Shown: positions 15,915 through 40,779 of the stretch, piece by piece
Position numbering within the stretch: position 1 is the stretch's first letter
Layout of the letters: the number at the start of each line of letters is the position of its first letter
Assembly (NCBI GenBank): GCA_041663425.1
Contig: JBAYMS010000002.1
Coordinates: 2,076 to 66,075, forward strand
From: Candidatus Omnitrophota bacterium
GTDB lineage: Bacteria > Omnitrophota > Gorgyraeia > 2-01-FULL-45-10
Direction: 5' to 3'
DNA length: 64,000 nucleotides
The notes under the pieces: generated by a model
The model's database searches: none
Told to the model about the DNA's origin: nothing
Seen by the model: only the letters and a program-made list of their open reading frames with translations
Program-made: the position numbers and the translations under genes

Positions 15915-16532
15915 ATGGTTATGATGGATAGGAAGGAAAGGGATAAACAGTTGCGCAAGGCAGATATTCTGAGAGCGGCCGAGAACGTATTTGCATCCAA
16001 AGGGTATCACGAAGCTACAATACAGGATATTGCCAAACAAGCCCAGTATGGCACCGGCACAGTTTATCTTTATTTTAAAGATAAGAATGCTCTTTATTTT
16101 TCCCTTCTCGAAGAAAAAATTCAAAGTCTTATAAATAACGCAAAAGAGAAGACGGAGCAGGCAAAGGATGCTAAAAAGAAGCTTGAGATCTTTATCCGGG
16201 AAAGCCTGGTTTTCTTTGAGCAGAATCAGAGTTTCTTCCGTATATATATGCTGGAAAAAAATAGCATTCAGCTAATAGTCAGTAAAAAAGTTACAGAATC
16301 CTTCAGTGTGCTAGAACATGCCACGGAATATGTTGAAAAGCTTATCAAGCATGCGCAGGAGGAGAACGTTATTAAGAAAAATTACAGCCCTTCAGAATTG
16401 GCCGACATACTGGCTTCTATCATGGGCTCTATGATCTTAAACTGGACGAAATCGGATCTGAGAAAAGTAGGCAGCCTGAAAGATAAGACCGGTTTTATTT
16501 TTGATATGTTTTTGAATGGCGCAGGGAAGTAG
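15915..16532 (+). CDS. TetR/AcrR family transcriptional regulator
   Basis: N-terminal HTH ILRAAENVFASKGYHEATIQDIAKQAQYGTGTVYLYFKDK; 205 aa. Confidence 0.85.
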   Translation: MVMMDRKERDKQLRKADILRAAENVFASKGYHEATIQDIAKQAQYGTGTVYLYFKDKNALYFSLLEEKIQSLINNAKEKTEQAKDAKKKLEIFIRESLVFFEQNQSFFRIYMLEKNSIQLIVSKKVTESFSVLEHATEYVEKLIKHAQEENVIKKNYSPSELADILASIMGSMILNWTKSDLRKVGSLKDKTGFIFDMFLNGAGK

Positions 16533-16592
16533 AGCCTTAAAACTATCATTTACCTCGCGTTATAATCCCGCAAAAATAAAGTCAAAATAATA

Positions 16593-16642
16593 TTGACAAC
16601 ACTCTAAGTGAATGGTATGATTTATTTATGAATTACAATTCA
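16593..16642 (+). promoter_or_regulatory. Sigma70 promoter (TTGACA-17-TATGAT) with an overlapping TGAATTACAATTCA palindrome upstream of the efflux operon
   Basis: TTGACA 16593-16598, TATGAT 16616-16621, palindrome 16629-16642 immediately downstream of the -10. Confidence 0.4.
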
Positions 16643-16688
16643 AATAATGATTAAAAATTCAAACAAATTGCGGTAAAGGAGCAGGGCT

Positions 16689-18038
16689 ATGTCGTTTTGG
16701 AAAAAAGTGTTATTAAATTTTATTGTTTTTGTAGTTAGCTTTCCGCTATGTGTTTATGGCGCGGAGGCTGCCGCCAGTGTTGGAGAAAAGGGTGGAAGGC
16801 TGCTTACCATACCGGAGGGAATCTCAATTGTGCTTAAAGACAGCCGTCTGATAAAGATAGAGACATTCGGCAAGGATATGTCATTCGATGACACTCTTAT
16901 CGCACTGTCTCCTCTATTGCCGCATCTGAGCGCTAATATAGGTAAGACATATCAGCGATACACTCCTACGATGATGTTCGGCAGTATGGCTGTACCTATG
17001 GGCGACCAGAATCCGGTATCGGGCGGTATCGATATCTATCAGACCCTTTTTGATTTTGGCAGGAGTATTTCAAATTATAAAGCATCTACTGAAATGCTCA
17101 ATGCCCGCAAAGCGAGCGTAGAAAGTGTAAAGCGGACGGTAACTCTGGAATTCGTGGTTTCTTATTTTGACCTATTAGAGACAGAGAAGATGATAGATGT
17201 CGCAAAGAAAGAAGTGGACAGTCTTACCTCTTATCTTAATGATATGCAGCATCTCTATGAGCAGGGCGTTATAGTAGAGAACGATCTTTTGCCGGCAAAA
17301 GTAAAGCTTGCAGATGCCAGACAGAAACTTATAGCTTCAGGCAACAGGAGGGAAATAGTTGCGGCCGGAATAAATACTATGCTTACCATGCCGCTTACGG
17401 AGGACGTAACTACCAGGGATGTTAACACGCAGATGCCGGCGCTGCCTGAGCTGACTGATGCCTGGAGCTCTGCTGAGGCTAAAAGGCCGGAGATATTATT
17501 TTTTAATAAGCAGATAAAATCTTCCGCTTTAAGGGAACAGGCCAGAACAGTCCAGAATCTTCCGACGGTTTTTGTCGACGGAGGATATGCGTATACACAG
17601 AATCAATACATGGTTCATGAGGACAATGCGTATGTTAAGTTTGGCGCGAAGATGGATCTGTATGACGGCGGCGCGACTGGTGCAGAGATTATGAAAGAGC
17701 GCTCTCTGAATAAGCAGCTTCAGGAGCAGAGAAATAAAATAGTAGAAGATATCCGCTACGAAGTTAAGCGCAGTTTCTTAGGGCTGAAAGATGCTATTGA
17801 AAAATTGGAGGTAGCGAAGGGTGCTCTCCGGCAGGCTGAGGAGAATCTGCGGTTTTATCGTGTTAAATATAATAACGGTGTTGCTACCTCAACAGATGTT
17901 CTTGAAGCCATTAACCTTCAGACAAAAGCCGAGACCAATTATTATAGCGCGGAGTATGAGCTAAAACGTTGTTATGCGAAGCTTGTGTATTCAATGGGGG
18001 ACGATTTAGTGTCAATTTACAATGAAACGGAGAAATAA
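16689..18038 (+). CDS. TolC-like outer membrane efflux protein
   Basis: 449 aa; signal peptide; two-repeat coiled-coil/beta-barrel OEP architecture; first gene of the efflux operon. Confidence 0.8.
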   Translation: MSFWKKVLLNFIVFVVSFPLCVYGAEAAASVGEKGGRLLTIPEGISIVLKDSRLIKIETFGKDMSFDDTLIALSPLLPHLSANIGKTYQRYTPTMMFGSMAVPMGDQNPVSGGIDIYQTLFDFGRSISNYKASTEMLNARKASVESVKRTVTLEFVVSYFDLLETEKMIDVAKKEVDSLTSYLNDMQHLYEQGVIVENDLLPAKVKLADARQKLIASGNRREIVAAGINTMLTMPLTEDVTTRDVNTQMPALPELTDAWSSAEAKRPEILFFNKQIKSSALREQARTVQNLPTVFVDGGYAYTQNQYMVHEDNAYVKFGAKMDLYDGGATGAEIMKERSLNKQLQEQRNKIVEDIRYEVKRSFLGLKDAIEKLEVAKGALRQAEENLRFYRVKYNNGVATSTDVLEAINLQTKAETNYYSAEYELKRCYAKLVYSMGDDLVSIYNETEK

Positions 18039-18040
18039 TC

Positions 18041-18898
18041 ATGGCACATAAAAAAAATAAGAAAATGGTCGGGGTCGCTGCCGTTACAACATTGATCTGC
18101 GGTATATTTTTAGCACGTTACATGATCAGCAATTTTGGATGCGTTAGCACGGATGACGCTTATGTTGAGGGCAGGATACATGCCATAGCTTCAAAGATAC
18201 CCGGGACCGTTAAGCTTGTTAACGTTACGGACAATCAAATTGTTAAAGAGGGCGATGTTCTTATCGAGATTGATCCGGTTGATTACGAGCTGAAAGCCGC
18301 AGAAGCTAAAGCCGGTTTGGAAATAAGAAAGGCGGCGCTTGAACAGGCGGGACGCGATAAAGACCGTGCGGAAGTTCTTTATAACGAAAAAGTGTTTCCA
18401 AAAGAACGTTATGAGAACGCACTCACTGCATTTAATCTGGCAAAGGCCCAGACCGATACTGCCGAGGCACAGTTTAATATTGCCCAAAAAAATCTGGAGT
18501 ATACGAAGATATATGCTCCCTCAGACGGGCACATAACCAAGAAATCGGTTGAGACAGGCAACCAGATACAGCCGACACAGGCTCTTATGGCTGTTGTTCC
18601 GAATGATATGTGGGTAGTGGCTAATTTTAAAGAGACGGAATTGGCCGATATGCGTCCCGGGCAGATTGTGGAAATCAAGATAGATAGTTATCCGGGAAAA
18701 ATATTTGAGGGTCACGTGGATAGCGTCCAGCGTGGAACCGGAGCTAAGTTCAGCATGTTTCCTCCCGAGAACGCTTCGGGCAATTTTGTGAAAGTCGTCC
18801 AGCGCATACCTGTTAAGATCATGTTTGATAAAGGCCAGGATGAAAAATATCCGCTGAGCATAGGGATGTCTGCCGTTCCAAAAGTTAAGGTGCGTTAA
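18041..18898 (+). CDS. HlyD/EmrA-type membrane fusion protein
   Basis: N-terminal TM anchor, lipoyl/beta-barrel motifs (VEGRIHAIASKIPGTVKLVNV, DGHITKK); 285 aa. Confidence 0.8.
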   Translation: MAHKKNKKMVGVAAVTTLICGIFLARYMISNFGCVSTDDAYVEGRIHAIASKIPGTVKLVNVTDNQIVKEGDVLIEIDPVDYELKAAEAKAGLEIRKAALEQAGRDKDRAEVLYNEKVFPKERYENALTAFNLAKAQTDTAEAQFNIAQKNLEYTKIYAPSDGHITKKSVETGNQIQPTQALMAVVPNDMWVVANFKETELADMRPGQIVEIKIDSYPGKIFEGHVDSVQRGTGAKFSMFPPENASGNFVKVVQRIPVKIMFDKGQDEKYPLSIGMSAVPKVKVR

Positions 18899-20439
18899 TG
18901 CAAAAAGAAGCAGTTGCCGGCAGTGTTGAAACTCACTGGCGTCCTTCGCATAATCCGTGGTTAATTTGCGCTGCGGTTATGCTGGCGACTACCATAGAAG
19001 TTTTGGATACCACTATTACAAACGTTGCCATGCCTAATATCGCGGGGAACCTGGCGGTAACTACTCATGAAGCGACCTGGGTATTAACAAGCTACCTTGT
19101 CGCGAACGCGATAATTTTACCTGCCGCAGCATGGTTTAGCGGATTTTTCGGGAGAAAACGTTTTCTTATCAGCTGTATTGTTTTATTTACCATCGCATCT
19201 TTGCTGTGCGGCTTTGCAAACAGTCTTGGCTTTTTGCTTTTGGCCAGAGTATTTCAGGGGTTGGGCGGCGGAGCGCTGATGCCTATATCGCAGGCGATAC
19301 TTTTCGAAAGTTTTCCTAAAGAAAAACACGGTGTCGCGATGGCAGTTTTTGCGGTAGGTGTTATTGTAGCTCCTATATTGGGCCCTATCATAGGAGGATG
19401 GCTTACTGATAATTATTCCTGGCGATGGGTATTTTTTATTAATCTACCTATAGGGATAATAGCTGTCCTGATGGCAAAGGCATTTATAGAGGATCCGCCA
19501 TATATTAAGAAAGAAAAGTCCATGATCGATTACATCGGATTTGGGCTTATGGCAGTAGGCTTGGGCTCGCTGCAGATCGTGTTGGATAAAGGGCAGGAAG
19601 TGGATTGGTTTCAATCTGCCTGGCTTTGCAAGATGGCCATTCTTACCTGCATTTCTCTTATAGCGTTTATTTTTTGGGAATTGCGGGTAAAGCATCCCGT
19701 GGTTAACCTCCGTATATTAAAAGATAGAAATTTTTGTGCTGGATTGATAGCGGCAATGCTTATAGGTGCGTCTATGTATGGCATTATGACTTTGATGCCG
19801 TTATTTTATCAGACACTTCTTGGCTATTCCGCTTACTTGAGCGGGATAGCATCCGCTTCTCTTGGAATAGGAGCGTTCGCTTCAGCTATAGCTGTTGGTA
19901 TACTAACCAAGCGTATTGATAGCCGGATTTTCTTTGTTCTGGGGTTATTAATATTAGGTGCGGCATGTTTCTATATGGCCGGTATTAATTTGCAGATCGC
20001 AATTTTTAGCATGTTAATACCTCTTATTGCCATAGGGTTTGGAATAAGTACGGCTTTCGTTCCGTTGTCGTTGCTCGCCGTCGGGCACCTTGCAAATAAA
20101 GATATGGGTAATGGTTCGGGACTTTTTAATCTCATGAGAAATATAGGAGGAAGTATAGGCATCGCTATGACGACGACGATGCTTTCGCGTATGTCGCAGG
20201 TGCATCAGACATTTCTGGTCGGGCATCTTACGCCATACGATCAGGTATATAGGCAGACATCCCAGTCTATGGGCAAAGGAATAGGGGACGGTTTAGTATA
20301 TAGGGGGTTATTGCAGCAGTCTGCCTTGCTCGCATATGTAGATAGTTTCTATCTATTCAGTATTATGGCCATTTTATGCATACTTACAGTATTTCTTTTC
20401 CGAAAAGTAAAAGTCGATGGAGCGATCGCGGTTCATTAA
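18898..20439 (+). CDS. MFS drug:H+ antiporter, DHA2 (EmrB/QacA) family, 14 TMS
   Basis: 513 aa; MFS motif GRKRFLI, 14 predicted TM helices; translationally coupled to the MFP gene. Confidence 0.85.
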   Translation: MQKEAVAGSVETHWRPSHNPWLICAAVMLATTIEVLDTTITNVAMPNIAGNLAVTTHEATWVLTSYLVANAIILPAAAWFSGFFGRKRFLISCIVLFTIASLLCGFANSLGFLLLARVFQGLGGGALMPISQAILFESFPKEKHGVAMAVFAVGVIVAPILGPIIGGWLTDNYSWRWVFFINLPIGIIAVLMAKAFIEDPPYIKKEKSMIDYIGFGLMAVGLGSLQIVLDKGQEVDWFQSAWLCKMAILTCISLIAFIFWELRVKHPVVNLRILKDRNFCAGLIAAMLIGASMYGIMTLMPLFYQTLLGYSAYLSGIASASLGIGAFASAIAVGILTKRIDSRIFFVLGLLILGAACFYMAGINLQIAIFSMLIPLIAIGFGISTAFVPLSLLAVGHLANKDMGNGSGLFNLMRNIGGSIGIAMTTTMLSRMSQVHQTFLVGHLTPYDQVYRQTSQSMGKGIGDGLVYRGLLQQSALLAYVDSFYLFSIMAILCILTVFLFRKVKVDGAIAVH

Positions 20440-20475
20440 TACAAGAAAGTATTTCGCGGTGGCAGTAAAAAATAG

Positions 20476-21678
20476 ATGAATATGCCGAAAAAAATATTTT
20501 GTCTGATAGTTTTTATGCTCCTTATTTCCGGATGCGCGATCGCGCGCCATGCAGTTCCGCCTGATTTATTAAACAATACCTGTGTTTTAGGCATGCGGGA
20601 TATCCGGGCATTTGGAGGCGTTCCGAGCGATTCTTTTAAGAGTGATGTTCTGAGTTTGCTGGAGTATGAAAAGAAGGAGGGGCTTTCGTTTTTTGATACC
20701 GGCCTCAGGCGCGTCTATCCTGTGCTCGCTATCTCCGGCGGATCGGCCAATGGAGCATATGGTGCCGGCTTGCTTAGCGGATGGTCAAAAGAAGGCTCCC
20801 GGCCTGAATTTAAAATTGTTACCGGTATAAGTACCGGAGCTATAATAGCGCCATATGCTTTCTTGGGAAGTAATTATGATGACAAATTAAAAGAGTTTTA
20901 TTCGAAGTATTCAACAAAAGATCTTGTGGAGTTAAGTCTATCTAATAATTCACTTGGAAGCGTTAAGCCGCTAAAACGGTTGATAGAGAAATATGCCGAC
21001 AAACAGTTGCTAGTAAAAATAGCCGCAGAATATAAAAAGGGGCGCAGGCTTTATGTAGGCACTACCAACTTGGATGCCCAGAGGCTGGTGATATGGGACA
21101 TGGGCAAGATCGCTTCCATAGGAGATGATAAAGCGCTGGATCTATTCCGAAAGATAATACTTGCGTCTGCGTCTATTCCCGTAGCTTTTCCTCCTGTTTA
21201 TTTTAATGTGGAAGTTGACGGCAAGGTTTATGACGAAATGCATGTTGATGGAGGAACGACAAAACAGGTATTTTTTATTTACGATGTTCTTCAGGGAGTT
21301 GATAATGCTTTTAAGGGAAACGGCATTGATGTTTCAAAAATAAAATATAGTATTTATATTATCAGGAACGGTTATGTAGACCCGATATGGAAAGAAGTGC
21401 CGGATAGTTTATCAGCGATTGCCGAACGCAGTATCGATACAATGACAAATGCCCAAGGGGCCGGAGATCTGTATCAATTGTATGTATTCGCCAAGGCTAG
21501 TAAAGGTGATTTTAATTTGGCAAGTATTCCGACCGCTAATGTTTATAGTTCCAAAGAAATATTTGATGCTTCCATGATGTGCAAGCTTTTTGATCTTGGT
21601 TTTGAACAGGCTAGTCGCGGCTACCCATGGAAAAAAATACCACCCGGAATGGGGAAAGATTTGATTAATAATAAATGA
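20476..21678 (+). CDS. Patatin-like phospholipase lipoprotein
   Basis: Lipobox LLISGCA; oxyanion GGSANGAYGAG; nucleophile elbow GISTGA (GxSxG); 400 aa. Confidence 0.75.
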   Translation: MNMPKKIFCLIVFMLLISGCAIARHAVPPDLLNNTCVLGMRDIRAFGGVPSDSFKSDVLSLLEYEKKEGLSFFDTGLRRVYPVLAISGGSANGAYGAGLLSGWSKEGSRPEFKIVTGISTGAIIAPYAFLGSNYDDKLKEFYSKYSTKDLVELSLSNNSLGSVKPLKRLIEKYADKQLLVKIAAEYKKGRRLYVGTTNLDAQRLVIWDMGKIASIGDDKALDLFRKIILASASIPVAFPPVYFNVEVDGKVYDEMHVDGGTTKQVFFIYDVLQGVDNAFKGNGIDVSKIKYSIYIIRNGYVDPIWKEVPDSLSAIAERSIDTMTNAQGAGDLYQLYVFAKASKGDFNLASIPTANVYSSKEIFDASMMCKLFDLGFEQASRGYPWKKIPPGMGKDLINNK

Positions 21679-21717: not shown

Positions 21718-21810
21718 ATGGCGAGTAAGAAAACATGGACAATCTGGATATCGATAATTTTATTTTATGTAATATCTGTCGTTATAGCGTTTTTCAGCCA
21801 TAAAAAATAG
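21718..21810 (+). CDS. Possible 30-aa single-TM peptide ([30 protein letters not shown])
   Basis: GGAGGG RBS 6 nt upstream; hydrophobic core; sits between the patatin gene and lpxD; not in the ORF track because it is under 60 aa. Confidence 0.25.
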
Positions 21811-21820
21811 AGGGCAACTT

Positions 21821-22807
21821 ATGAATATAAGAGAACTGGCAAGGTTAGTAGGCGGGGCTATAGAAGGTGATAGCGATATTGACATAATAGGGGTAAGCGG
21901 CATAGAAACCGCTAAGTCGGGCGATATGGCGTTCGCGCTTAGCGAAGAAAGGCTGGCAGGCGCCGAGAAAAGCAAGGCCTCCTGTATATTGACAGATAAA
22001 ACCATAAGAAAATCTACAAAAACTCTTATACGGGTAAAAAACCCTAAACTATCTTTTCTTATTAGCAGCAATATATTAAATGTCCCACAGGTCCGGGAAT
22101 CATTTGTGCACTCGGCAGCTACGGTATCTGATAAAGCATGTCTCGGGGAAAACGTCTGGATCGACTCTGGCGTTAGAATAGAAGAGGGCGTGGTGATCGG
22201 AGATCATGTGATCGTAGAGTCTAACTCCGTGATAAAGAAAAATTGTGAGCTGGGTTCGTATTGTCATATCTATCCAAACGTTACATTATACGAAAATACA
22301 AAGCTACAAAAAAATGTGATCTTACATAGCGGCGTTGTGATCGGCTCAGACGGATTTGGTTATGTAAAAGATAATGGTAAGATATATAAATTTCCACAGC
22401 TTGGCAAAGTTATAATAGAAGACGACGTTGAGATCGGAGCTAATACAACCATAGATAGGGGATCCTTGAGCGATACTGTGATCGGCTCAGGCACGAAGAT
22501 TGACAACTTATGCCAAATCGCCCATAATGTAAAAATAGGGAATAATATGCTGATGGCTGCGCAATGCGGTATTTCCGGCAGCACAACTATAGGAAGCGAT
22601 GTGACGATGGGCGGGCAGGCAGGTGTAGTCGATAATGTTACGATAGGCGACAATGTAATTATAGGTGCTAAAAGCGCGGTTATAGGCAATGTAAAAAGTG
22701 ATTCAGTCCTCTGGGGCATCCCAGCCAGACCGATCGCTCAAACGAAAAGGCAGATGGCTGTTTTGTCATGGTTAGCTAAAAATTTTAAAAAAATTAAAAC
22801 GCATTAA
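21821..22807 (+). CDS. lpxD: UDP-3-O-acylglucosamine N-acyltransferase
   Basis: 328 aa; left-handed beta-helix hexapeptide repeats; N-terminal IRELA...IIGVSGIE LpxD domain. Confidence 0.85.
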
Positions 22808-22820
22808 GAAAGAAGGGTAT

Positions 22821-22958
22821 ATGAAAAACGCAATATTACTTATATTATTGTTTGTAATCTGTGCAGCGTTTGCCGGCTGCGGAGAAACAGTCTCCGGCGT
22901 CGGAAAAGACGTTAACAGAATGGGTAAAGGTGTAAATACATTTTTCTTCCGCGAATAG
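22821..22958 (+). CDS. Entericidin EcnA/B-family small lipoprotein (45 aa)
   Basis: MKNAILLILLFVICAAFAGCGETVSGVGKDVNRMGKGVNTFFFRE; lipobox plus C-G-x-T-V-S-G-V-G-K-D-V as in EcnB (CNTTRGVGEDI); RBS GAAGGG; absent from the ORF track (under 60 aa). Confidence 0.55.
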   Translation: MKNAILLILLFVICAAFAGCGETVSGVGKDVNRMGKGVNTFFFRE

Positions 22959-23098
22959 TAATTACCGCTAATGGTTAGAATTTGTTTGTTTACTCAGGTT
23001 ATTTCGCTATAATAGAAGCATGTGTAAATAGAGAATCTCTCTTTATGCGGCATGAGAGATATTTTAACCATAATAAATCTAAAACAGAAGAGAATCGT

Positions 23099-24055
23099 AT
23101 GAACATGAAAAACTTTTTACGGCAGTTTGTGCCGTTGGTTACTCTGGCGTTATTCTTATCGACTTCTTCACTCGCAATAGCCAGCGAAGAAAGTAAGCAA
23201 AAGCAGAGAGAGGAATTACAGAAGAGTTTTGAATGGTGGCCTACCGATGCTCAGCCTGCTCCGGTGAAAGACGAGAAGCGCGGAGGGTACTGGTGGTGGC
23301 CTACAACGCCCGGCAAGATTAAGCCCTGGGGAAACCGGGGATATGTCTATGTGTACAAGATTATTTATGACTATAAAGCAGAAGAACTTCCTCCGCCAAA
23401 ACCGCAGGAGTTAAGGCAGTCTTTGCTTATCAGGAAAATAATTAAAAATGTTAAGATCTATTTCGATTACAATAAATCCGATCTGCGTGATGACGCTGCC
23501 AGTATTTTAGAGAACGCGGTAAGCATGCTGAACAAAAATCCGGAAACATCTATTTTAATAACCGGCAATTGTGATATCCGCGGTTCTGAGACATATAACG
23601 ATAAGCTCGGTAAGCAGCGCGCCGCATCTGTGAAAAATTTCATGTCCAATAATGGTATACCCGAAGAGAGGATCAAGATCATAAGCCGCGGCAAGCTGGA
23701 CGCAGTGGCTCCGGTTGCCGATCTCGTAGGTATGCAGAAAGACAGAAATGCCCAGTTTGTTATAGCCGTGGTAGAAGAGGCAATGCTTCCTGCTCCTGAG
23801 GCAGAGAAAATAGAACAGGCGAAGCCGATAGAGGAAGGTAAATACCTGGTCGAAGAGCAGCAGCAGGTTGTCTCCGAGGTAAAGGTATCTCAGAAAGAAT
23901 ATATTATCCAGAAAGACGACTCACTCTGGAAGATAGCTAAAAAAGAGATGGGCAGCGGAAATCGCTGGAAATATCTGTATGAATTAAATAAAGACAGGAT
24001 CAAGGATCCTAATAAACTAAAAGCAGGCCAGAAGATCATTATACCTGTTGAATAG
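23099..24055 (+). CDS. OmpA-family peptidoglycan-binding protein with C-terminal LysM domain
   Basis: Start chosen at MNMKNFLRQFVPLVTLALF (signal peptide); OmpA_C motif (TGNCDIRGSETYNDKLGKQRAASV); LysM (YIIQKDDSLWKIAKKEMGSGNRWKYLYELN...AGQKIIIPV). Confidence 0.8.
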   Translation: MNMKNFLRQFVPLVTLALFLSTSSLAIASEESKQKQREELQKSFEWWPTDAQPAPVKDEKRGGYWWWPTTPGKIKPWGNRGYVYVYKIIYDYKAEELPPPKPQELRQSLLIRKIIKNVKIYFDYNKSDLRDDAASILENAVSMLNKNPETSILITGNCDIRGSETYNDKLGKQRAASVKNFMSNNGIPEERIKIISRGKLDAVAPVADLVGMQKDRNAQFVIAVVEEAMLPAPEAEKIEQAKPIEEGKYLVEEQQQVVSEVKVSQKEYIIQKDDSLWKIAKKEMGSGNRWKYLYELNKDRIKDPNKLKAGQKIIIPVE

Positions 24056-24070
24056 TGCGGCTGATCTAAT

Positions 24071-24110
24071 AAAAAAACGAAGCGCCAAATAATGGCGCTT
24101 CGTTTTTTTA
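24071..24110. terminator. Bidirectional intrinsic terminator
   Basis: AAAAAAA-ACGAAGCGCC-aaataat-GGCGCTTCGT-TTTTTTTA: a perfect 10-bp stem flanked by A and T tracts, located between convergent genes. Confidence 0.6.
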
Positions 24111-24123
24111 TTTCCGTTATATT

Positions 24124-24282
24124 TTAACGGCCGCTATCTTTGCGCTTAGAGAAACAATCCTTACAATATACCGGACGATCTTCTCTGGGCTTGAAAGGGA
24201 CTTCGCATTCTTTCTTACATTCTGCGCAAGTCGCTTTGTGCATTTCCCGCGGGCCACTGCTGAATCCGCCTTGATAACCCAT
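24124..24282 (-). CDS. Small CxxC...CxxC zinc-ribbon protein (52 aa)
   Basis: MGYQGGFSSGPREMHKATCAECKKECEVPFKPREDRPVYCKDCFSKRKDSGR; two CxxC pairs 17 residues apart; ends at the bidirectional terminator. Confidence 0.45.
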   Translation of the reverse strand: MGYQGGFSSGPREMHKATCAECKKECEVPFKPREDRPVYCKDCFSKRKDSGR

Positions 24283-24283
24283 G

Positions 24284-24466
24284 CTACTCCTCCTTTGTTG
24301 CTTCTACGACCGGCGAAACTGCCGTATCGTTATTCACCGCTTGAACAGGGACCTCCCCTGCAAGCGCGTTCTTCTTATCTAATTTACGCTGCATCTTTTC
24401 TTCTTTTTTCTTTTTCTTTGCCTGTTCTCTTTTGAATTTTTGATATGAATAATTATCTCTGGCCAT
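24284..24466 (-). CDS. Small lysine-rich basic protein (60 aa), unknown function
   Basis: AAAGGAGG RBS 7 nt upstream of the ATG ([32 protein letters not shown]...); its stop lies 1 nt before the zinc-ribbon ATG in a different frame. Confidence 0.4.
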
Positions 24467-25457
24467 TAGAGCCTCCTTTTTTGGACTTCTTGGCAAGCCT
24501 TGACAGGACGGCCATCTGCCTTTTGGCGTGAGCTATAGGCCTTGCAGGAATACCCCAGATTACTGATCCGCTTTTTACATTGCCTATAACCGCGCTTTTA
24601 GCACCTATGGTTACATTGTCACCGATCGTTACGTTGTCGACTATGCCCGCTTGCCCTCCCATTGTGACATTATTGCCTACAGTAGTGCTGCCTGATATGC
24701 CGCACTGCGCCGCCATCAGGAAATTTTTTCCTATCTTGACGTTGTGGGCGATCTGGCATAAGTTGTCGATCTTCGTGCCCGAGCCGATGATGGTATCTCC
24801 TAAAGACCCCCTGTCTATGGTGGTGTTTGATCCGATTTCTACATCATCTTCGACAATAACTCTGCCAAGCTGTGGGAATTTATATATCTTACCATTGTCT
24901 TTTACATAACCAAATCCGTCTGAGCCGATCACAACGCCGCTATGTAAGATCACATTTTTTTGTAGTTTTGTATTTTCATAAAGCGTTACATTGGGGTAGA
25001 TATGGCAGAAGGAGCCTATGGAGCAGTTCTTCTTTACCACGGAATTGGATTCTATTATCACATGGTCTCCCAGCTCTGCGCCTTCCTCTATAGTGACATT
25101 TGGCCCTATCCATACGTTTTTTCCTATATTAGCAGAATCTGAAACCGTAGCCATGGGGTGTATGAACGATTCCCTGTCTTTCGGTGCATTAAACGTGTTG
25201 TATATAATAAGGAAGGAGAGTTTCGGGTTGGTTACTCTTATGAGAGTTTTGGATGATTTCCTTATGGTTTTATTCGTCAATACGCATGAAGCGCTGCTTC
25301 TTTCGGCTCCTGCAAGCTTGTCTTCATCCATCGCAAATGTGAGATCGCCTGATTTAGCTTTTTCTATGCCGCTTAATCCGATGATGTCGATATTATCGTT
25401 GCCTTCTACAAAACCTTCTATAAGCTGTGCCAGTTCTCGTATTTTCATAATCTCCAC
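24453..25457 (-). CDS. lpxD: UDP-3-O-acylglucosamine N-acyltransferase, second inverted paralog
   Basis: 334 aa, about 80% aa identity to the + strand lpxD; the central part is nearly identical at nucleotide level; basic C-terminal tail [12 protein letters not shown]. Confidence 0.85.
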
Positions 25458-25741
25458 AACACCTTTCTTGCGCTGATAGATTATCTATGGAGAATTTGCC
25501 GGATCCTTCACAGGGGGTTTCGGAATTATTTTACGCAGGTGACGCAGCAGTGGCCGGCTTGTTTAAGGCGAGGTGCCGGTGAACGTTACAGTATGTCGAG
25601 AAATTATATATACTGAGTTGACGTTTACAGCTGGTGAGCCTGCAGAATCTGCGTTTTTTGTTGGATTTAACCACTTTTGCCATATATCAGTATATCACGT
25701 ATGGGCGTATTAAGATACATATTTAAAATCTTATTTTTTTC

Positions 25742-25904: not shown

Positions 25905-27701
25905 ATGCTGAACTTTTTACCGAAACAACTTTTCATGATCGATCCGCTTGCGATATTTTTTCTTATCGTTATAGGCCTCGTGTGCATTCCATCGGCAATA
26001 TTTTCGATAGGGTATATGCAGGGCGAGAGTGCTAAGAAAAAAGTGATCGGATGGTCACTTCTCGTGATATTTACCATGTCCATGTGTATGGTAGTGACTT
26101 CAGGCAATCTTCTCTCGTTCCTTATATTCTGGGAAATTATGTCCCTAGCCTCTTATTTCCTGGTAGTTTTCGATTTTAAGCATGAAAAAGCTGTGCGCGC
26201 CGGCACCATCTACCTTATCATGACGCATATAGGAACGGCCTGCATCATGGCCGCGTTCTTTATGCTGTATAATTGCGCGGGCTCATTCGATTTTAATGTA
26301 TTAAAACAGGCCGTTACTTCATTGCCTCCCCAGGTTGCAAATATAGTATTTTTACTGTTGTTCGTAGGCTTTGCCACAAAGGCCGGCGTAGTTCCTATGC
26401 ATGTCTGGCTTCCTTACGCTCATCCGGAAGCCCCCAGTCATATTTCAAGTATAATGTCGGGTGTTATGATAAAGATCGCGATATACGGTATGATACGATT
26501 TTTTATAACGCTATTGGGTCCCGGCCCGGCATGGTGGGGTGTCCTTATTATGGGATTCGGGATGATCTCCTGCCTAGTCGGCGTGATATATGCCCTCATG
26601 GATCAGAAGCTTAAAAAATTGCTCGCTTATTCGAGCGTCGAGAATATAGGTATAATACTTCTCGGTGTGGGGGCTGCGATGTTCTTCGGATCTATCGGCA
26701 TAGCTGCCGTTGCCGTGCTAAGTCTATGTGCCGGACTTTACCACATCGTAAATCATGCGCTCTTCAAAGGGCTGCTATTCCTTTGCGCGGGAAGCGTGCT
26801 TAAAACGACCCTTTTGCATGACATGGAGAAGATGGGCGGGCTCATTAAAGCCATGCCCGCAACCGGATTGCTATTTTTAGTCGGCGCTATGGGTATTTCT
26901 GCGCTGCCTCCATTTAATGGCTTTGTCAGTGAATGGCTTACGTTCCAAGCTTTCTTTTCCGGCGTATTGCAGTCTCAGGGTGGTGTGAAATTTTTCATGG
27001 TCCTGTCCGCAGCTGTGCTCGCATTGACGAGCGGGCTTGCGGCTGCATGTTTTGTCAAAGCGTTCGGCATTGCTTTTCTCGCCATGCCGCGAAGTGCACG
27101 CGCTAAGGAAGCTAAGGAAGCCAGCCTGTCTATGAGGGCGGGTATGGCTATACTGGCAGCGGGGGTTGTTTTATTCGGCATAGGTGCAGGTTTTATAGCG
27201 CCGCTTATATTCAATGTCGCGCGCGGTGTATTCAGCGCAGAAAGCATACAGGGATCTTTCTATTTTGTGTCAATCCTGCCTCCGGCCATCGCGATATTAA
27301 TGCTTGCGATGGGAGGCTTGATTTTTCTGTGGTTCAAATTCGGCCTGCGCACAAAACAGACTAGCTATAATACATGGGATTGTGGATATTACAACCTCAA
27401 CAGCCGCAATGAATATACCGGCACTGCTTTTTCAAAACCTTTCAGGATAGCCTTCAGCTTTTTTCTTCTGCCTTACCGTAAAAGTGAAAAGATAAGGGAC
27501 TCATTTTATCATGTGCGCAAATTTACTTATGAGACGCATACCACAATGGTGTTTAAGAACTATTTTTATCAGCCGTTGACACGCTTTGTTTACTCGACGG
27601 CATCAAAGATGAAAAAACTGCAGCCAGGAAGTATTCACCTGTATATTTTTTACATTTTTATTACCCTGGCAATTTTACTGGCAGTCACGGCGGCATTTTA
27701 A
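25905..27701 (+). CDS. Ehr/Hyf-type complex, NuoL/HyfB-like antiporter-like membrane subunit
   Basis: 598 aa; Mrp-antiporter-like motif WLPYAHPEAPSHISSIMSGVMIKIAIYGMIRF. Confidence 0.8.
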   Translation: MLNFLPKQLFMIDPLAIFFLIVIGLVCIPSAIFSIGYMQGESAKKKVIGWSLLVIFTMSMCMVVTSGNLLSFLIFWEIMSLASYFLVVFDFKHEKAVRAGTIYLIMTHIGTACIMAAFFMLYNCAGSFDFNVLKQAVTSLPPQVANIVFLLLFVGFATKAGVVPMHVWLPYAHPEAPSHISSIMSGVMIKIAIYGMIRFFITLLGPGPAWWGVLIMGFGMISCLVGVIYALMDQKLKKLLAYSSVENIGIILLGVGAAMFFGSIGIAAVAVLSLCAGLYHIVNHALFKGLLFLCAGSVLKTTLLHDMEKMGGLIKAMPATGLLFLVGAMGISALPPFNGFVSEWLTFQAFFSGVLQSQGGVKFFMVLSAAVLALTSGLAAACFVKAFGIAFLAMPRSARAKEAKEASLSMRAGMAILAAGVVLFGIGAGFIAPLIFNVARGVFSAESIQGSFYFVSILPPAIAILMLAMGGLIFLWFKFGLRTKQTSYNTWDCGYYNLNSRNEYTGTAFSKPFRIAFSFFLLPYRKSEKIRDSFYHVRKFTYETHTTMVFKNYFYQPLTRFVYSTASKMKKLQPGSIHLYIFYIFITLAILLAVTAAF

Positions 27702-27704
27702 ATT

Positions 27705-28589
27705 ATGATAAAATTAAACGATATGATAATGGTAGTGGTGGAAGGGCTGCTGCTTATACTCATAGCCCCTCTTATAAGCGGGGTCATAAGGAAAATAAAG
27801 AATGTATTTCGTATGCGTAAAGGGCAGAGCGTGCTGCAGCCTTACTATAATATCCGGAAGCTTTTTTTAAAGGATGAGGTTATCTCAAAGAATGTTTCAT
27901 GGATATTTTACGCAGCGCCAGTTATAGTTTTTGCCGGAAGCGTAACAGCTCTTCTCATGGTCGTCGCGATAAATCCGAGGGCCATCACAGAAAATACAGC
28001 AGCTTTATTCATAGCCGTATTTTTCGTTCTGGGGATCGGCCGTTTCTTTTTAGCGCTTGCCGGGCTCGACGCCGGCTCTTCGTTTGGAGGCATGGGCTCG
28101 TCGCGGGAAATGTTCATCTCAAGTTTTGTCGAACCTGCTATTTTTATAACGGTATTTGTTTTGTGTATGGGCGGGGGAGGGGTTTACAGGGTCTCTGCGC
28201 TTCTGGCGGGAGCCGCTCTTTTTATGGCAGTGATCGCTGAGACTTCACGTGTCCCGGTGGACAACCAGGAGACGCATCTCGAATTGACCATGATACACGA
28301 AGCAATGGTCCTTGAATATTCCGGGAGATCTCTGGCGCTCATAGAATTGGCTTCTCATATAAAGCAGATAGCGCTTTTTACAGTACTTTCATGGTACCTC
28401 TTTCCATATACGATAATGGGAATGAGTGGATATCTGTCGTTCCCTGTAAAGATAGCAGCTATTTGTCTGGCGGTCGCAGTGGTCGAGATATCGGTAGCCA
28501 AAATGAGGTTATTCAGGGCGGTAGATTTTTTAAGCTTTTCTTTTTTCATAGCGATTGTTGCTTCGATCGCAGCTATATTGGGGTTATAA
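27705..28589 (+). CDS. NuoH/HycD-like membrane subunit
   Basis: 294 aa; conserved EAMVLEYSGRSLAL (E..EYSG) NuoH/HycD signature. Confidence 0.8.
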   Translation: MIKLNDMIMVVVEGLLLILIAPLISGVIRKIKNVFRMRKGQSVLQPYYNIRKLFLKDEVISKNVSWIFYAAPVIVFAGSVTALLMVVAINPRAITENTAALFIAVFFVLGIGRFFLALAGLDAGSSFGGMGSSREMFISSFVEPAIFITVFVLCMGGGGVYRVSALLAGAALFMAVIAETSRVPVDNQETHLELTMIHEAMVLEYSGRSLALIELASHIKQIALFTVLSWYLFPYTIMGMSGYLSFPVKIAAICLAVAVVEISVAKMRLFRAVDFLSFSFFIAIVASIAAILGL

Positions 28590-28592
28590 ATT

Positions 28593-29231
28593 ATGATACT
28601 CAGTTTCTTATTAAGCGGTTTTCTTATCGTAACATTTCTTCTGGTGGTAGCCAAAAGAATTACCGCGCTTGTCCGCGCCTTCAGGATGCAGTCGGTATTC
28701 CTTTTTCTGTATACGCTTTATATGGCGCTCAATCAGCGTCATTTTGAGTTATTTATTGTATGCGGACTGGTCTTTGTTCTTAAAGCTGTGATCATACCAT
28801 TTGTCCTTCTGCGTATTACGCGCCGGATAAACGTGGAAGAAGATCTGGGGCTTCTGATAAATCCGCAGGTATCGCTCGTTATAGCGCTTGCCTTCGTATA
28901 TCTTTCATATCTATTTGCGCATAATGCCATGGGGCTTAAAAATCTAGCGGAATCCGCGGCCTTCATAGCCTCGATCACTACCGTGTGCATAGGTTTCTTC
29001 ATTATGGCCAGCCGGATGAAAGCGCTCAGCCAGATAGTGGGGCTTCTAGTTATGGAAAACGGTATATTTCTTGCAGCTGCATCGATAGCGGGAGGGATGC
29101 CGTTTTTCGTAGAAATAGCGTTATTCTTCGACGTCTTTGTATTTGTTATCATTGTCGAGGTTTTTGTGTATAAGGTAAACAGGCTTTTTACGCATATCGA
29201 TACATCTAAGATGCAGTCACTTAAAGGATAA
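28593..29231 (+). CDS. HyfE-like (NuoK-related) small membrane subunit
   Basis: 212 aa, about 6 TM helices; position and size match HyfE/MbhG-type subunits. Confidence 0.6.
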   Translation: MILSFLLSGFLIVTFLLVVAKRITALVRAFRMQSVFLFLYTLYMALNQRHFELFIVCGLVFVLKAVIIPFVLLRITRRINVEEDLGLLINPQVSLVIALAFVYLSYLFAHNAMGLKNLAESAAFIASITTVCIGFFIMASRMKALSQIVGLLVMENGIFLAAASIAGGMPFFVEIALFFDVFVFVIIVEVFVYKVNRLFTHIDTSKMQSLKG

Positions 29232-29233
29232 TA

Positions 29234-30697
29234 ATGTTAATAGCGCTGATAATTTTAATACCGGTTTTTTTGACGATAGCTTCACTATTCATCAGGAAGG
29301 TGAAGCCGGCCGGGATGGTCAACGTATTCGGTTACGCGGCGGTTCTGGCAGTATCTGTTCTGCTATTAAGGGATTTCGTCGCCAAAGGAAATGCGCCCAT
29401 AAATTTGTGGGGATGGTTTTATGTTGATGCGCTCAGCGTATTTTTCCTGCTGACCACCGCTGTGGTTAGTTTTGCGGCGAGCGTGTATTCGATAGGGTAT
29501 ATAAACTTCGAGGTAGAAGAGGGGAAAATATCTGTCCGCAAAGCATGCGCTTATTTCCAATTATTTAATTTATTTTCTCTCGCAATGGTTATGGTGCCCC
29601 TTCTTAGCAACCTGCCGCTGGTCTGGATAGCTATCGAAATGACGACGCTCATCTCAGCTTTCCTTGTGGGATTCCACAATGTAAAGGAATCGATCGAGGC
29701 GGCCTGGAAATATATAATTATTTGTTCAGTTGGCATAACCTTTGCGCTTTTAGGAATAATATTTTTCTATTACACTTCATCGAAAGATGCGGGCGTGAGC
29801 AGCATGGAATGGCTTAGTATGTTCTCCGGCTCCGGCGCGTTTAATCCAAAAGTTGTGAGGCTTGCTCTTGTCTTCATATTTGTAGGATACGGAACAAAAG
29901 CAGGGCTTGCGCCGATGCATAACTGGCTTCCCGATGCGCACAGCCAGGCACTTTCTCCTATAAGCGGACTCTTATCCGGCGTGCTTATAAAAATATCTTT
30001 GTATGCCATATTACGTTTTGTGATGCTGGCAAATCTCTCAGTCGGTTACGCATACAGCGCGAAACTTTTTATACTTTTTGGTTTGGTCTCGATCGCTATC
30101 GCCGGAGCCTTTATACTTGTCCAGAAGGACCTTAAAAGATTATTTGCTTATTCAAGCGTTGAGAACATAGGGCTTATATCTTTAGGTTTTGGGTTCGGGC
30201 CTTTCGGTGGTATAGTCGCCGGACTTCTTCAGGCGTTTAACCACGCTGTAACCAAGGCGCTTATGTTCTTCTGCGCCGGAGAAGCTGTGAGAGTTTATAA
30301 AACCAACAATATGAACCAGATGCAGGGCATGATAAAGGTGATGCCGTTTACAGGTACGGCGATGTTTCTCGGGCTCTTTGCGCTCGTCGGGATGCCGCCT
30401 TTCTCTATATTTATAAGTAAGGTGGCGATATTCATAGCCGCATTCCAGGGAAAACACTATTTTGCCGCTTCGGTCATGTTCATCTTTATAGCGCTTGCTT
30501 TTGCGGGGCTGCTCTATCATATAAGCAGAATAATTTTAAGGAATAAGCCTCAGGCTATGCCCGTCCAGAAAGAACCTTTAAGTGCAAAAATAGCTTTTAT
30601 ATTTTTAGGAGTTTTCATATTAGGATTCGGGTTAGCGATACCTCGGGTGTTTTTTGAATTGCTTTTAAATTGTCAGCAGCTTATTTTGGGTAAATAG
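29234..30697 (+). CDS. NuoN/HyfF-like antiporter-like membrane subunit
   Basis: 487 aa; WLPDAHSQALSPISGLLSGVLIKISLYAILRF motif. Confidence 0.8.
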   Translation: MLIALIILIPVFLTIASLFIRKVKPAGMVNVFGYAAVLAVSVLLLRDFVAKGNAPINLWGWFYVDALSVFFLLTTAVVSFAASVYSIGYINFEVEEGKISVRKACAYFQLFNLFSLAMVMVPLLSNLPLVWIAIEMTTLISAFLVGFHNVKESIEAAWKYIIICSVGITFALLGIIFFYYTSSKDAGVSSMEWLSMFSGSGAFNPKVVRLALVFIFVGYGTKAGLAPMHNWLPDAHSQALSPISGLLSGVLIKISLYAILRFVMLANLSVGYAYSAKLFILFGLVSIAIAGAFILVQKDLKRLFAYSSVENIGLISLGFGFGPFGGIVAGLLQAFNHAVTKALMFFCAGEAVRVYKTNNMNQMQGMIKVMPFTGTAMFLGLFALVGMPPFSIFISKVAIFIAAFQGKHYFAASVMFIFIALAFAGLLYHISRIILRNKPQAMPVQKEPLSAKIAFIFLGVFILGFGLAIPRVFFELLLNCQQLILGK

Positions 30698-32281
30698 ATG
30701 AATAATTCTGAGTATATAAAAAACATTTTAAATTCTGAAAATATCGAAGCGCTTAATTTGTCCATGGCGTATGAGGATGAGTTATATATAAAAGCATCCG
30801 GAGCGGATTTTGGCAGAATATGTAAGGCGCTGCACAAACGCCTTGATTCTCCGGTAATGACATTTTTCGCTGAGGATATGCGCCTGACATCAGGCGTATT
30901 CGTATTGACATGTGTTTTTCTAAGCATTCAGAGCCGTTCCTGGATATTTATCCAGCAGGATATTCCGCAGGACGATCCTAAATTTACTTCGCTCGCAAAA
31001 GATATTTATTCCGCCAGTCTTTTCGAGCGGGAGATGCGGGAAATGTTCGGCATAAAGCCCGAAGGCAATCCTGATGCCAGAAGCCTCAGACTTCATGATG
31101 AGGTATGGCCGAAAGGATACTATCCGCTGCGTAAAGATTTTGTTCCCCCGAAGGAGAAACCTGACGGGAGCGCGCAATATCAGTTTAAACGCGTAGACGG
31201 CGAAGGGATATTTGAAGTTCCGGTCGGGCCAGTCCACGCGGGCATTATCGGCCCTGGCCATTTCAGGTTCAGTGTGGCAGGTGAGCCCATTGTAAATTTA
31301 GAGACACGTCTTGGCTGGACACACAGAGGTGTGGAGAAAATTCTCGAAGGCAAAGGGCTTGATGAAGCCGTAAATATAGCAGAATGCATAAGCGGTGATA
31401 CCGCGTTTGGCTACAGCCTTGCCTTTTGCAAAAGTGCGGAAAAGATACTCAGTATAGAAGTCCCCGTCAGGGCACAGCTCCTACGCGTCATGTTTTTAGA
31501 AATGGAACGGCTATATAATCATGCAAATGACATGGGCGGTATCGCCCTGGATGTCGGTTTCAGCTTTCCGGCGCAGTTTGCGAGCCTGATCAAGGAAGCT
31601 ATCCTGCGGCTTAATGAGGATCTGACCGCCTCGCGATATCTTAAAGGTGTAAATGCAGTCGGCGGGGTGAAGAAAAATATAAGCAGGGAGAAACTTAAAA
31701 TCGTTCCCGAGCTTCTTGAAAAAATAGAAAAAGATCTTCTCGCTATGGAGGATATGCTATTTTCGAGCATATCTTTTATGGACCGTTCTGATGCCACGGG
31801 AATTTTACGGACAAAGACGGCGCGCGACCTTGGCATAACCGGAGTTGCGGCACGCGCGAGCGGCATAGGGCTGGACGTGAGAAAAGTTTTTGCGGATATT
31901 TATAATAAATTTTCTTTTACGATGCCGAAAGAACATGCAGGCGATGTAACCGCCCGCCTTAAGATCCGGTGTTCTGAAGTTAAGGAATCGATATCGATAA
32001 TAAAACAATGTCTGGGCAGGTTAGATAACTGTGATTCACGAATCAGGGATATAGTTCCGGAAAGAGAAGGCGCGGCGCTGGGCTGTGTTGAAGCATGGCG
32101 TGGAGCGGTGCTTGTCTGGACCAGGCTGGATGTCAAAGGAAAGATCGTCAGATGTAAAATAACGGATCCTTCTTTCCATAACTGGGATGGGCTTTCTTTT
32201 GCGGTGCTGGGAAATATTATTCCAGATTTTCCGTTATGCAATAAAAGTTTCGACTTGTCATATTCGGGTAACGACCTATGA
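30698..32281 (+). CDS. Fused NuoC-NuoD / HycE-like 'large subunit' homologue lacking the NiFe-ligand cysteines
   Basis: 527 aa; GPVHAGIIGPGHFRF...WTHRGVEK core is present; the N-terminal RxCGxC position reads AECISGDTAFGY (both Cys replaced) and the C-terminal DPCxxC position reads DPSFHNWDG (no Cys). Confidence 0.8.
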   Translation: MNNSEYIKNILNSENIEALNLSMAYEDELYIKASGADFGRICKALHKRLDSPVMTFFAEDMRLTSGVFVLTCVFLSIQSRSWIFIQQDIPQDDPKFTSLAKDIYSASLFEREMREMFGIKPEGNPDARSLRLHDEVWPKGYYPLRKDFVPPKEKPDGSAQYQFKRVDGEGIFEVPVGPVHAGIIGPGHFRFSVAGEPIVNLETRLGWTHRGVEKILEGKGLDEAVNIAECISGDTAFGYSLAFCKSAEKILSIEVPVRAQLLRVMFLEMERLYNHANDMGGIALDVGFSFPAQFASLIKEAILRLNEDLTASRYLKGVNAVGGVKKNISREKLKIVPELLEKIEKDLLAMEDMLFSSISFMDRSDATGILRTKTARDLGITGVAARASGIGLDVRKVFADIYNKFSFTMPKEHAGDVTARLKIRCSEVKESISIIKQCLGRLDNCDSRIRDIVPEREGAALGCVEAWRGAVLVWTRLDVKGKIVRCKITDPSFHNWDGLSFAVLGNIIPDFPLCNKSFDLSYSGNDL

Positions 32282-32802
32282 GCTTTAATATAATTAAAAA
32301 CGGTATTAAAAAAGGCAGAGTTACTATAAAACTTGATCCGGCAGACGTTTTAGTGCCGCCGGAGATAGAAAAAATAGGGCATCAGCTCAGGAAAGCGGTC
32401 CATGCGAAGTTCGGCAGATCGTTCCATATCCGCGAAGTGGATACAGGCTCCTGCGGTGCCTGTGAGTCTGAAATAATTGCGTGTTCAAATCCATTGTATG
32501 ATATCCAGCGTTTCGGAATAGATTTCGTCGCTTCGCCGCGCCACGCGGACGCTCTTCTGGTTACGGGACCTGTTTCCAAAAATATGGAACTCGCGCTTAA
32601 AAAAACTTACGAAGCTATGCCCGAGCCTAAGCTTGTAATTACCCTCGGAGATTGCGCCAAAGGCGGCGGTTTATTCAAAAACTCTTATTATGCATGCTCC
32701 GGCGTGGAAAATGTCCTGCCTGTTATTCTGCACATCCCCGGTTGCCCTCCAAGCCCGCTGGCTATTATGAAAGCACTGCTGGCATTTCTGAAATCAGCAT
32801 AA
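32278..32802 (+). CDS. NuoB/HycG-like [4Fe-4S] small subunit
   Basis: 174 aa; four Cys (GSCGACESE, GDCAKGGG, IPGCPP) consistent with a proximal cluster site. Confidence 0.8.
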   Translation: MSFNIIKNGIKKGRVTIKLDPADVLVPPEIEKIGHQLRKAVHAKFGRSFHIREVDTGSCGACESEIIACSNPLYDIQRFGIDFVASPRHADALLVTGPVSKNMELALKKTYEAMPEPKLVITLGDCAKGGGLFKNSYYACSGVENVLPVILHIPGCPPSPLAIMKALLAFLKSA

Positions 32803-35757: not shown

Positions 35758-35779
35758 CATCCTTAAATCAAGGAGCCTA

Positions 35780-36244: not shown

Positions 36245-36249
36245 AATTT

Positions 36250-36768: not shown

Positions 36769-36769
36769 G

Positions 36770-38650: not shown

Positions 38651-38657
38651 AACTTAG

Positions 38658-40757: not shown

Positions 40758-40779
40758 AAACTTACGAGAGGGGTAGTCT

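Follow-up and report, generated by a model that had tools for sequence, protein, structure and literature searches.

Probable short-patch gene conversion between two old, inversely oriented accessory lpxD genes of an Omnitrophota bacterium

Organization of the inverted lpxD pair

A 64,000 nt stretch of the Candidatus Omnitrophota contig JBAYMS010000002.1 (assembly GCA_041663425.1; the whole stretch is referred to here as the window) contains two convergently transcribed genes of the lpxD family, lpxD_A and lpxD_B. lpxD_A (winA; 21821-22807) is transcribed rightwards and codes for a protein of 328 amino acids that is identical to MFA6320345.1 (P0038) and belongs to the A clade of accessory LpxD paralogues described below. 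lpxD_B (winB; 24453-25448) is transcribed leftwards and codes for a B-clade accessory paralogue of 331 amino acids if translated from the ATG at 25448, as called in the European Nucleotide Archive (ENA) record; its open frame reaches upstream to a GTG at 25457. The two products can be aligned without gaps and are 79% identical. In a repeat search of the window the genes are recovered as an inverted repeat with 974 nt arms that are 76% complementary, the left arm at 21819-22792 and the right arm at 24477-25450. The arms are 1,684 nt apart, and the spacer from stop codon to stop codon is 1,645 nt. The similarity is essentially confined to coding sequence, beginning 2 nt before the start codons and ending approximately 15 nt before the stop codon of lpxD_A. 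Because the repeat starts only 2 nt before the start codon, the upstream regions of the two genes are unrelated. The region preceding lpxD_A (21718-21820, rightwards) is 77% conserved with an orthologous locus (L005), of which positions 9898-10974 align by blastn to 21718-22794 of the window, and it likely contains the gene's own promoter and leader.

The same arrangement is present in ENA contig k141_1276896 (ERZ27247350; represented by our loci L004 and L014), which matches 20,987 nt of the window with a single mismatch. This sole difference is at 24409 (T in the window, G in L004) and lies within the lysine-rich gene 3' of lpxD_B. A preliminary description of this DNA, made from the sequence alone, had reported two inverted lpxD genes, and this is borne out both by the 974 nt repeat and by the TIGR01853 model, which both products pass. 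Its figure of about 80% amino acid identity is close to the observed 79%, and its account of the genes in the spacer holds except for the label entericidin-like given to one of them.

Two short tracts of near identity

The preliminary description also placed a nearly identical core of about 350 nt at 22330-22720 and 24560-24950. These 391 nt are only 83% identical, with 66 mismatches, and the estimate is approximately threefold too large; the segments that are nearly identical are two discrete tracts about a third of the claimed size. Tract 1 is 122 nt long with four mismatches (22292-22413 in lpxD_A, 24856-24977 in lpxD_B) and encodes residues 158-198. It includes a perfect core of 68 nt (22304-22371 and 24898-24965), and a 32-mer taken from this core has exactly two matches in the window. 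Three of the mismatches (at 22303, 22372 and 22393) are synonymous, and the fourth, at 22407, gives a lysine/arginine difference. Tract 2 is a perfect 38 nt match (22661-22698 in lpxD_A, 24571-24608 in lpxD_B) encoding residues 281-293, including Ala286. The intervening 247 nt are at the background level of identity (77%), and the 5' 471 nt of the two genes are 68% identical. Tract 1 coincides with the most conserved segment of the protein (residues 148-195).

The tracts are longer than expected by chance, as judged by three tests. A Sawyer-type permutation of polymorphic sites was applied to a codon alignment of seven sequences, winA, winB and five orthologue genes. Between winA and winB there are two identical runs, one of 26 polymorphic sites (P<1e-5) and one of 14 (P = 1e-4), and no significant run was found in any of the other 20 pairs. 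When the codon columns of winA and winB were shuffled, a run of 68 nt was reached in none of 20,000 trials, the largest being 53. Codons specifying the same amino acid in both genes are identical in 48 of 51 instances inside the tracts and in 88 of 199 outside them (binomial P = 4e-14). The earlier suggestion of gene conversion is supported, albeit through two discrete recent patches. Within the tracts, A-clade and B-clade orthologues alike depart from the window at numerous silent positions, so that the identity is not accounted for by selection at the level of DNA or RNA.

A second pair of lpxD genes of the same subfamily is present in locus L001 (CAYHAE010000015.1, 933-1904 and 10001-10993), encoding products with 72% amino acid identity. 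These genes are in direct orientation and 9 kb apart, and a conversion signal was not found between them, the longest identical run being 17 nt (P = 0.70). We note that the metagenome-assembled genome containing L001 is labelled Planctomycetia; its best matches suggest that the label probably should be Omnitrophota.

Age and phylogeny of the paralogues

A neighbour-joining tree of more than 70 homologues places the two genes in different clades, separated with 99-100% bootstrap support. The A clade contains winA together with P0047, P0049, P0046, P0048, P0040 and others, and the B clade contains winB with P0003, P0026, P0001 and others; each has members from many other contigs and orthologues in other Omnitrophota, the source named for many of the hits. 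The winB product is 87% identical to P0001 and 79% identical to its neighbour winA. When the tracts are removed, winA and winB are 71.5% identical overall and 43.7% identical at third positions, and are indistinguishable from unrelated cross-clade pairs (70% and 40.6%, respectively). Since the divergence of the two genes is at the cross-clade background and they fall into two clades, they are best regarded as old paralogues, saturated at silent sites, that carry two recent patches of identity.

The clade-diagnostic residues (T30K, T66S, I85T, K105S and G117N) are all within the N-terminal 117 amino acids. Bootstrap support for the A and B split is 100% with residues 1-147 and 6% with residues 148-328, and in the latter tree the A clade nests inside the diversity of the B clade. 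The C-terminal tails (encoded at 22760-22807 and 24453-24510) are dimorphic, ending in 'LSRLxKxSKKG...' or 'LSWLTKNFK...', and this dimorphism cuts across the B clade, with one B subgroup matching the A clade. The incongruence between the N-terminal and C-terminal trees hints that the 3' two-thirds of these genes may have been exchanging sequence for longer. Alternatively, the weak C-terminal split may reflect a lower information content of the conserved part of the protein.

Eighty metagenome loci were surveyed with an A/B-clade profile. Most encode LpxD proteins of other lineages that are only about 40-45% identical, and approximately six of the 80 are close relatives. The inverted lpxD pair was found in none of the other loci fetched, including these close relatives.

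Origin of the identity tracts

The scenario that we favor, with a probability of about 0.8, is that lpxD_A and lpxD_B are two ancient accessory paralogues, each heading its own operon, between which short-patch gene conversion has recently occurred. Inverted copies lying 1.6-3.6 kb apart and containing conserved stretches would engage in non-reciprocal homologous exchange, in which patches of 122 nt and 38 nt in the beta-helix region of one copy would be overwritten with the sequence of the other. The divergence of the surrounding sequence would abort extension of the heteroduplex and keep the tracts short, and the remainder of each gene would retain the saturated divergence of an old paralogue. 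The identity of each paralogue would be held in its N-terminal uridine-binding domain and the first helix coils, and A and B may differ in function. The molecular route may be either a RecA-type heteroduplex or template switching during replication.

Several points weigh against this scenario. Orthologues of the A clade and of the B clade are at equal distance from the tract sequence, and there are no clade-diagnostic sites in the tracts, since diagnostic residues all occur at or before residue 117, such that neither gene is marked as donor or recipient. The same reads may underlie both assemblies, in which case their agreement would count for less against an assembly artefact than that of fully independent records. 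Initiation of recombination at approximately 72-80% identity is expected to be very inefficient and the event therefore rare, although this does fit with the shortness of the tracts. Placement of a canonical lpxD in the same genome (see below) would follow from a shared sample and nearby accession numbers, not from a closed genome.

It is possible, if somewhat doubtful, that the patches arose by replication template switching between the nearby inverted copies and not by RecA heteroduplex repair, with the same non-reciprocal homogenization as the outcome but through different enzymes. The logic is that of quasipalindrome correction: the arms are close (1,684 nt), the tracts very short (38 and 122 nt), the background identity of about 72% is too low for efficient RecA strand exchange, and the signal is seen in the inverted pair and is absent from the direct pair of L001. 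Template-switch correction is, however, known mainly for much shorter quasipalindromes, and sequence alone gives no way of separating the two routes. An artefact of metagenome assembly or consensus calling was considered on the grounds that the window is from a metagenome-assembled genome and that both records come from the same sample. It is very unlikely, because a contig assembled at k = 141 spans tracts that are shorter than k, leaving no graph ambiguity at the final k, because a de Bruijn assembler does not invent sequence common to paralogues, and because 24409 is the one position in 21 kb at which the NCBI-derived window and the ENA contig disagree. The tracts might instead be kept identical by selection acting on their nucleotides, for instance through an antisense gene, an internal promoter or an embedded RNA element, and it is in favor of this that tract 1 overlaps mutually similar antisense open reading frames (ORFs; 22360-22719 and 24580-24909) and that a promoter-like pair of hexamers is nearby (22261-22289). 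However, the silent-site differences of both clades' orthologues throughout the tracts largely refute it, promoter-like matches are about as frequent as in shuffled controls (11 found, 10.1 expected), and long antisense stop-free stretches are seen in all of the lpxD genes examined, making this highly improbable. Least credible is a recent inverted duplication of a single lpxD gene followed by rapid divergence everywhere except in a constrained core. The copies are adjacent and the most conserved segment does correspond to tract 1, but the phylogeny refutes it, each copy being closer to relatives in other species than to its neighbor; outside the tracts, third positions show only the identity seen between clades, and silent sites could not have been preserved by protein constraint.

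A different role for the repeats would be as arms of an invertible segment, in which a crossover within the 68 nt core flips the interval 22372-24897. Inverted repeats do flank the segment, neither reading frame would be disrupted by a crossover in register, and the perfectly identical inverted 68 nt are longer than the approximately 25 nt usually quoted as the minimum for RecA recombination. The incongruent trees (100% and 6% support for the A and B split) are also as expected from past 3' swaps, but strong conservation alone could account for the weak C-terminal signal. The available records, the window and the ENA contig, show one and the same orientation, and a recombinase or invertase was not found among the Pfam-scanned ORFs of the 64 kb window. 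None of the four hybrid LpxD proteins predicted from inversion at either tract is present in a collection of 15 billion proteins, a weak test given that the parental B protein is absent too; likewise the 32-mer from the tract core has no matches in the JGI metagenome contigs, a collection that does not contain this population. Inversion is on balance quite unlikely; if it does occur, it would generate chimeric enzymes (A N-terminus with B C-terminus, and the converse) and leave each promoter with the other's downstream partners. A broader proposal is that A and B are an Omnitrophota-specific accessory subfamily (with Asn for His in the active site and Ala at the ruler position) in which the N-terminal sugar-nucleotide domain sets specificity and the beta-helix and acyl carrier protein (ACP)-binding part is exchanged by conversion and occasional inversion, the pair acting as a domain-shuffling cassette. 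We consider this unlikely, but it would predict chimeric acyltransferases re-paired with either the lipoprotein and OmpA/LysM partners or the lysine-rich and zinc-finger partners.

Family membership and active sites of the paralogues

LpxD_A and LpxD_B score 339.8 and 357.1 bits, respectively, against the curated equivalog model TIGR01853 (cut-off 242.5). Both contain the PF04613 uridine-binding domain (38-40 bits, cut-off 30.8) followed by PF00132 hexapeptide repeats (114-118 bits), and by these family criteria they are predicted to N-acylate UDP-3-O-acyl-GlcN with R-3-hydroxyacyl-ACP. The best matches in the Protein Data Bank (PDB) are LpxD of Escherichia coli (3EH0, 4IHF-4IHH) and Chlamydia trachomatis (2IU8), with E values of about 1e-56; these share the same three-domain architecture at 35-37% identity.

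The active sites were compared by aligning A, B and the canonical copies with E. coli LpxD, for which the sequence was taken from the PDB alignment. F38, D228, Q232 and H235 of both A and B correspond to E. coli F41, D232, Q236 and H239, and are invariant in an alignment of 28 sequences. In E. coli, H239 is catalytic, D232 and Q236 are ligands of the acyl hydroxyl and F41 stacks on uracil (PMC6286764). A further residue, E. coli H276, contacts the pyrophosphate, and the H276A substitution lowers kcat 32-fold (PMC6286764). This position is occupied by Asn272 in A and B (22634-22636 and 24633-24635) and is invariant within the A/B subfamily, whereas canonical Omnitrophota LpxD keeps the histidine (His277).

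At the position of E. coli Met290, the acyl-chain ruler, A and B both have Ala286 and the canonical copy has Gly291. An M290A substitution in the E. coli enzyme admits C16-C18 chains, and the C20-specific Chlamydia enzyme has a glycine (Gly298) there (PMC6286764), suggesting by analogy that Ala286 may provide a deeper pocket for chains longer than C14. Comparison of the ruler residues, proposed in the preliminary description, thus finds A and B to be identical at the one position that could be mapped, which itself lies inside tract 2. That they share the same residue argues against a simple division of chain length between A and B; a difference in chain length between the canonical and accessory copies is possible. 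Other differences between A and B, at M243F, I257V, V269I and I280T, are candidate pocket residues. The paper collection searched contains nothing on Omnitrophota lipid A enzymes, and the A/B accessory LpxD subfamily has apparently not been described before.

A third, canonical lpxD

Neither of the window genes is in a lipid A operon, as lpxD_A is 3' of an efflux-patatin cluster and lpxD_B heads its own operon. A canonical lpxD is present in contig k141_904368 (L097) of the same ENA sample, ERZ27247350, as the window's contig. It codes for a 342-amino-acid LpxD (6774-7802; P0143, MFA6321598.1) and lies in a bamA-skp-lpxD-lpxC-fabZ-lpxI cluster, beside lpxB, a GFO/IDH/MocA oxidoreductase gene and an MsbA-like ABC transporter. 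Its accession is approximately 1,250 numbers from that of winA, and its product shares 41-43% identity with A and B. This makes it most likely that the organism carries three lpxD-family genes, with A and B as the predicted accessory copies. The preliminary description compared the pair with dual LpxD enzymes that remodel lipid A elsewhere. The analogy is a fair one, subject to the qualifications that three lpxD genes are most likely present and that A and B do not differ at the ruler position known from E. coli.

The context of the canonical gene is informative in another locus, L010, where an A-type lpxD lies 8 kb from the gene for a 342-amino-acid LpxD (1007-2035) within the same bamA-skp-lpxD-lpxC-fabZ-lpxI cluster; a search with this protein recovers a large clade of canonical Omnitrophota LpxD. 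The whole TetR-efflux-patatin-lpxD_A block of L010 is located between lpxI and lpxB, and it is elsewhere in the window's organism, and so has moved in the course of evolution. The canonical clusters of L097 and L010 contain no visible lpxA. The GFO/IDH/MocA oxidoreductase gene is directly beside lpxB in both (L097, 11144-12073; L010, 12173-13102), and we take it to resemble GnnA of organisms that build lipid A on GlcN3N. If so, the acyl acceptor may not be plain GlcN.

The spacer and neighboring genes

By gene order, the spacer is organized as two predicted convergent operons, lpxD_A-lipoprotein-OmpA/LysM transcribed rightwards and lpxD_B-lysine-rich-zinc finger transcribed leftwards. The lipoprotein gene (22821-22958, rightwards) codes for 45 amino acids with an FAGC lipobox and a G-x-G-x-D motif, and is a downstream partner of A-type lpxD; a homologue with 72% identity is 3' of lpxD_A in L095. 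The label entericidin-like is not sustained, as the resemblance to PF08085 is weak and sub-threshold (E = 0.016; 15.7 bits, cut-off 23.3; 11 of 20 profile positions). It is followed by a gene coding for an OmpA-domain and LysM protein of 336 amino acids (23045-24055, rightwards, as in the ENA record; PF00691, PF01476), for which the mechanically called ORF starts at a TTG at 22982. Between the operons is a hairpin (24068-24112) with perfect 20 nt arms flanked by an A-run and a T-run, and the 81 nt containing it (24050-24130) fold with -35 kcal/mol (z = -7.7). A consensus terminator scan missed this hairpin because its A and T runs pair with each other, but it is a probable bidirectional intrinsic terminator common to both operons.

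On the leftward side, a gene for a 52-amino-acid zinc-finger protein (24124-24282) has a CxxC-x17-CxxC treble-clef pattern (PF23477, E = 6e-20; TIGR04272), and homologues that are 87-93% identical adjoin lpxD in L005, L007 and L013, the lpxD being B-type in L007 and L013. The lysine-rich protein of 60 amino acids (24284-24466, leftwards; called in L014) has no Pfam match and belongs to no known family; its gene overlaps the 3' end of lpxD_B by 14 nt and has homologues 3' of B-type lpxD in L007 and L011. Upstream of lpxD_A is an efflux cluster, TetR-OEP-MFP-MFS, with a patatin-like phospholipase gene (15915-21678, rightwards). The TetR-OEP-MFP-MFS block precedes lpxD_A in the window, L005, L010 and L095, and the patatin gene is present in all of these but L005.

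The view of the spacer as an island bracketed by a duplication is misleading, since each half consists of genes that elsewhere are conserved downstream partners of its own lpxD. A foreign island was rejected on account of the uniform GC content (0.426-0.443 across the region) and the lack of mobility genes, with no recombinase, transposase or invertase among the window ORFs scanned against Pfam. The mutually similar antisense ORFs had been ascribed to the duplication, but antisense stop-free stretches of 81-270 amino acids are present in every lpxD examined, including single-locus and canonical genes. They were rejected as real antisense genes and are shadows of the coding sequence.

Locus L005 (GCA_028699255.1) is collinear with the window, having the efflux genes, the lpxD_A leader and gene, the leftwards zinc-finger gene and a hyf-like complex, and lacking the patatin gene, the lipoprotein/OmpA pair and the segment from the lysine-rich gene to lpxD_B. 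As the zinc-finger gene is grouped with lpxD_B elsewhere and is an orphan in precisely the corresponding place in L005, the most plausible explanation is that an ancestral inverted pair lost its lpxD_B. The inverted arrangement would then be older than the split between the window and L005 (approximately 78% nucleotide identity), and much older than the tracts.

Among the other genes in the window, 25905-32802 encodes a six-gene membrane-bound complex resembling Hyf/Mbh-type group 4 [NiFe]-hydrogenases, in which two Mrp/NuoL-like antiporter subunits are combined with NuoH-like, NuoB-like and fused 30-kDa/49-kDa subunits; the module is conserved in L005. The 447 nt gap between lpxD_B and this complex contains a leftwards ORF for 50 amino acids (25531-25683) that is cysteine-rich and has a weak CxC6-like match (E = 0.002), and 25458-25739 has no counterpart in L005. 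A rightwards ORF of 1132 amino acids (6263-9661), between nrdD/nrdG and the IMP dehydrogenase gene, has no Pfam match at E<=1e-5. Positions 34267-47585 and 47976-56262 contain a complete chemotaxis cluster (CheR, two CheW, a methyl-accepting chemotaxis protein, a CheA-CheY fusion and CheB), followed by a 1383-amino-acid dCache-HAMP-PAS histidine kinase and then by a type II secretion or type IV pilus-like cluster with GspE, GspF, a pseudopilin, a GspK-like protein, a PilM-PilN fusion and PilO.

Significance and relationship to known systems

Several copies of LpxD in one genome, and gene conversion between paralogues in inverse orientation, are both known kinds of phenomena, and the current understanding of either is not overturned. 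The value of the analysis is mostly in annotation: the locus should not be called a dual LpxD system, an island or a switch, and is better labelled as two accessory LpxD paralogues accompanied elsewhere by one canonical copy. An uncultured Omnitrophota lineage would thus have three LpxD-type acyltransferases, two of them in a lineage-specific accessory subfamily and with conserved but unexplained partners, these being the efflux pump with the patatin phospholipase and the lysine-rich with the zinc-finger proteins. Such gene content points to regulated remodelling of lipid A or the envelope in a phylum without cultured models. The tracts would also provide a clean natural case of short-patch conversion between strongly diverged paralogues (about 72% identity), a regime seldom seen, since laboratory work relies on genes that are almost identical.

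Multiple lpxD homologues in environmental or host-associated diderms are reportedly exemplified by lpxD1 and lpxD2 of Leptospira, for which we know of no inverted-pair arrangement. A parallel for function is provided by LpxD1 and LpxD2 of Francisella, which are 34% identical and carry out temperature-controlled remodelling of lipid A acyl chains (PMC3545938). As in Francisella, there is more than one LpxD per genome, with one in a canonical lipid A operon context and the others elsewhere, and the divergence between canonical and accessory copies (41-43% identity) is similar in scale to that between LpxD1 and LpxD2. Francisella differs in having two copies of apparently distinct origin, whereas here there are most likely three, the accessory pair being 79% identical; the sharing of Ala286 at the ruler position by A and B is a further difference. 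For the exchange itself the nearest comparison is with the tufA and tufB genes of Salmonella enterica, which are inversely oriented, 1185 nt long with 12 differing positions, and 762 kb apart (PMC5485169). Both are pairs of inversely oriented paralogues on one chromosome, with contiguous tracts exchanged non-reciprocally in the tuf genes and probably in the lpxD genes, but tufA and tufB evolve in concert over the whole gene, whereas the lpxD genes are 1.6 kb apart and approximately 72% identical outside the tracts, have only patches of 38-122 nt homogenized, and otherwise evolve independently.

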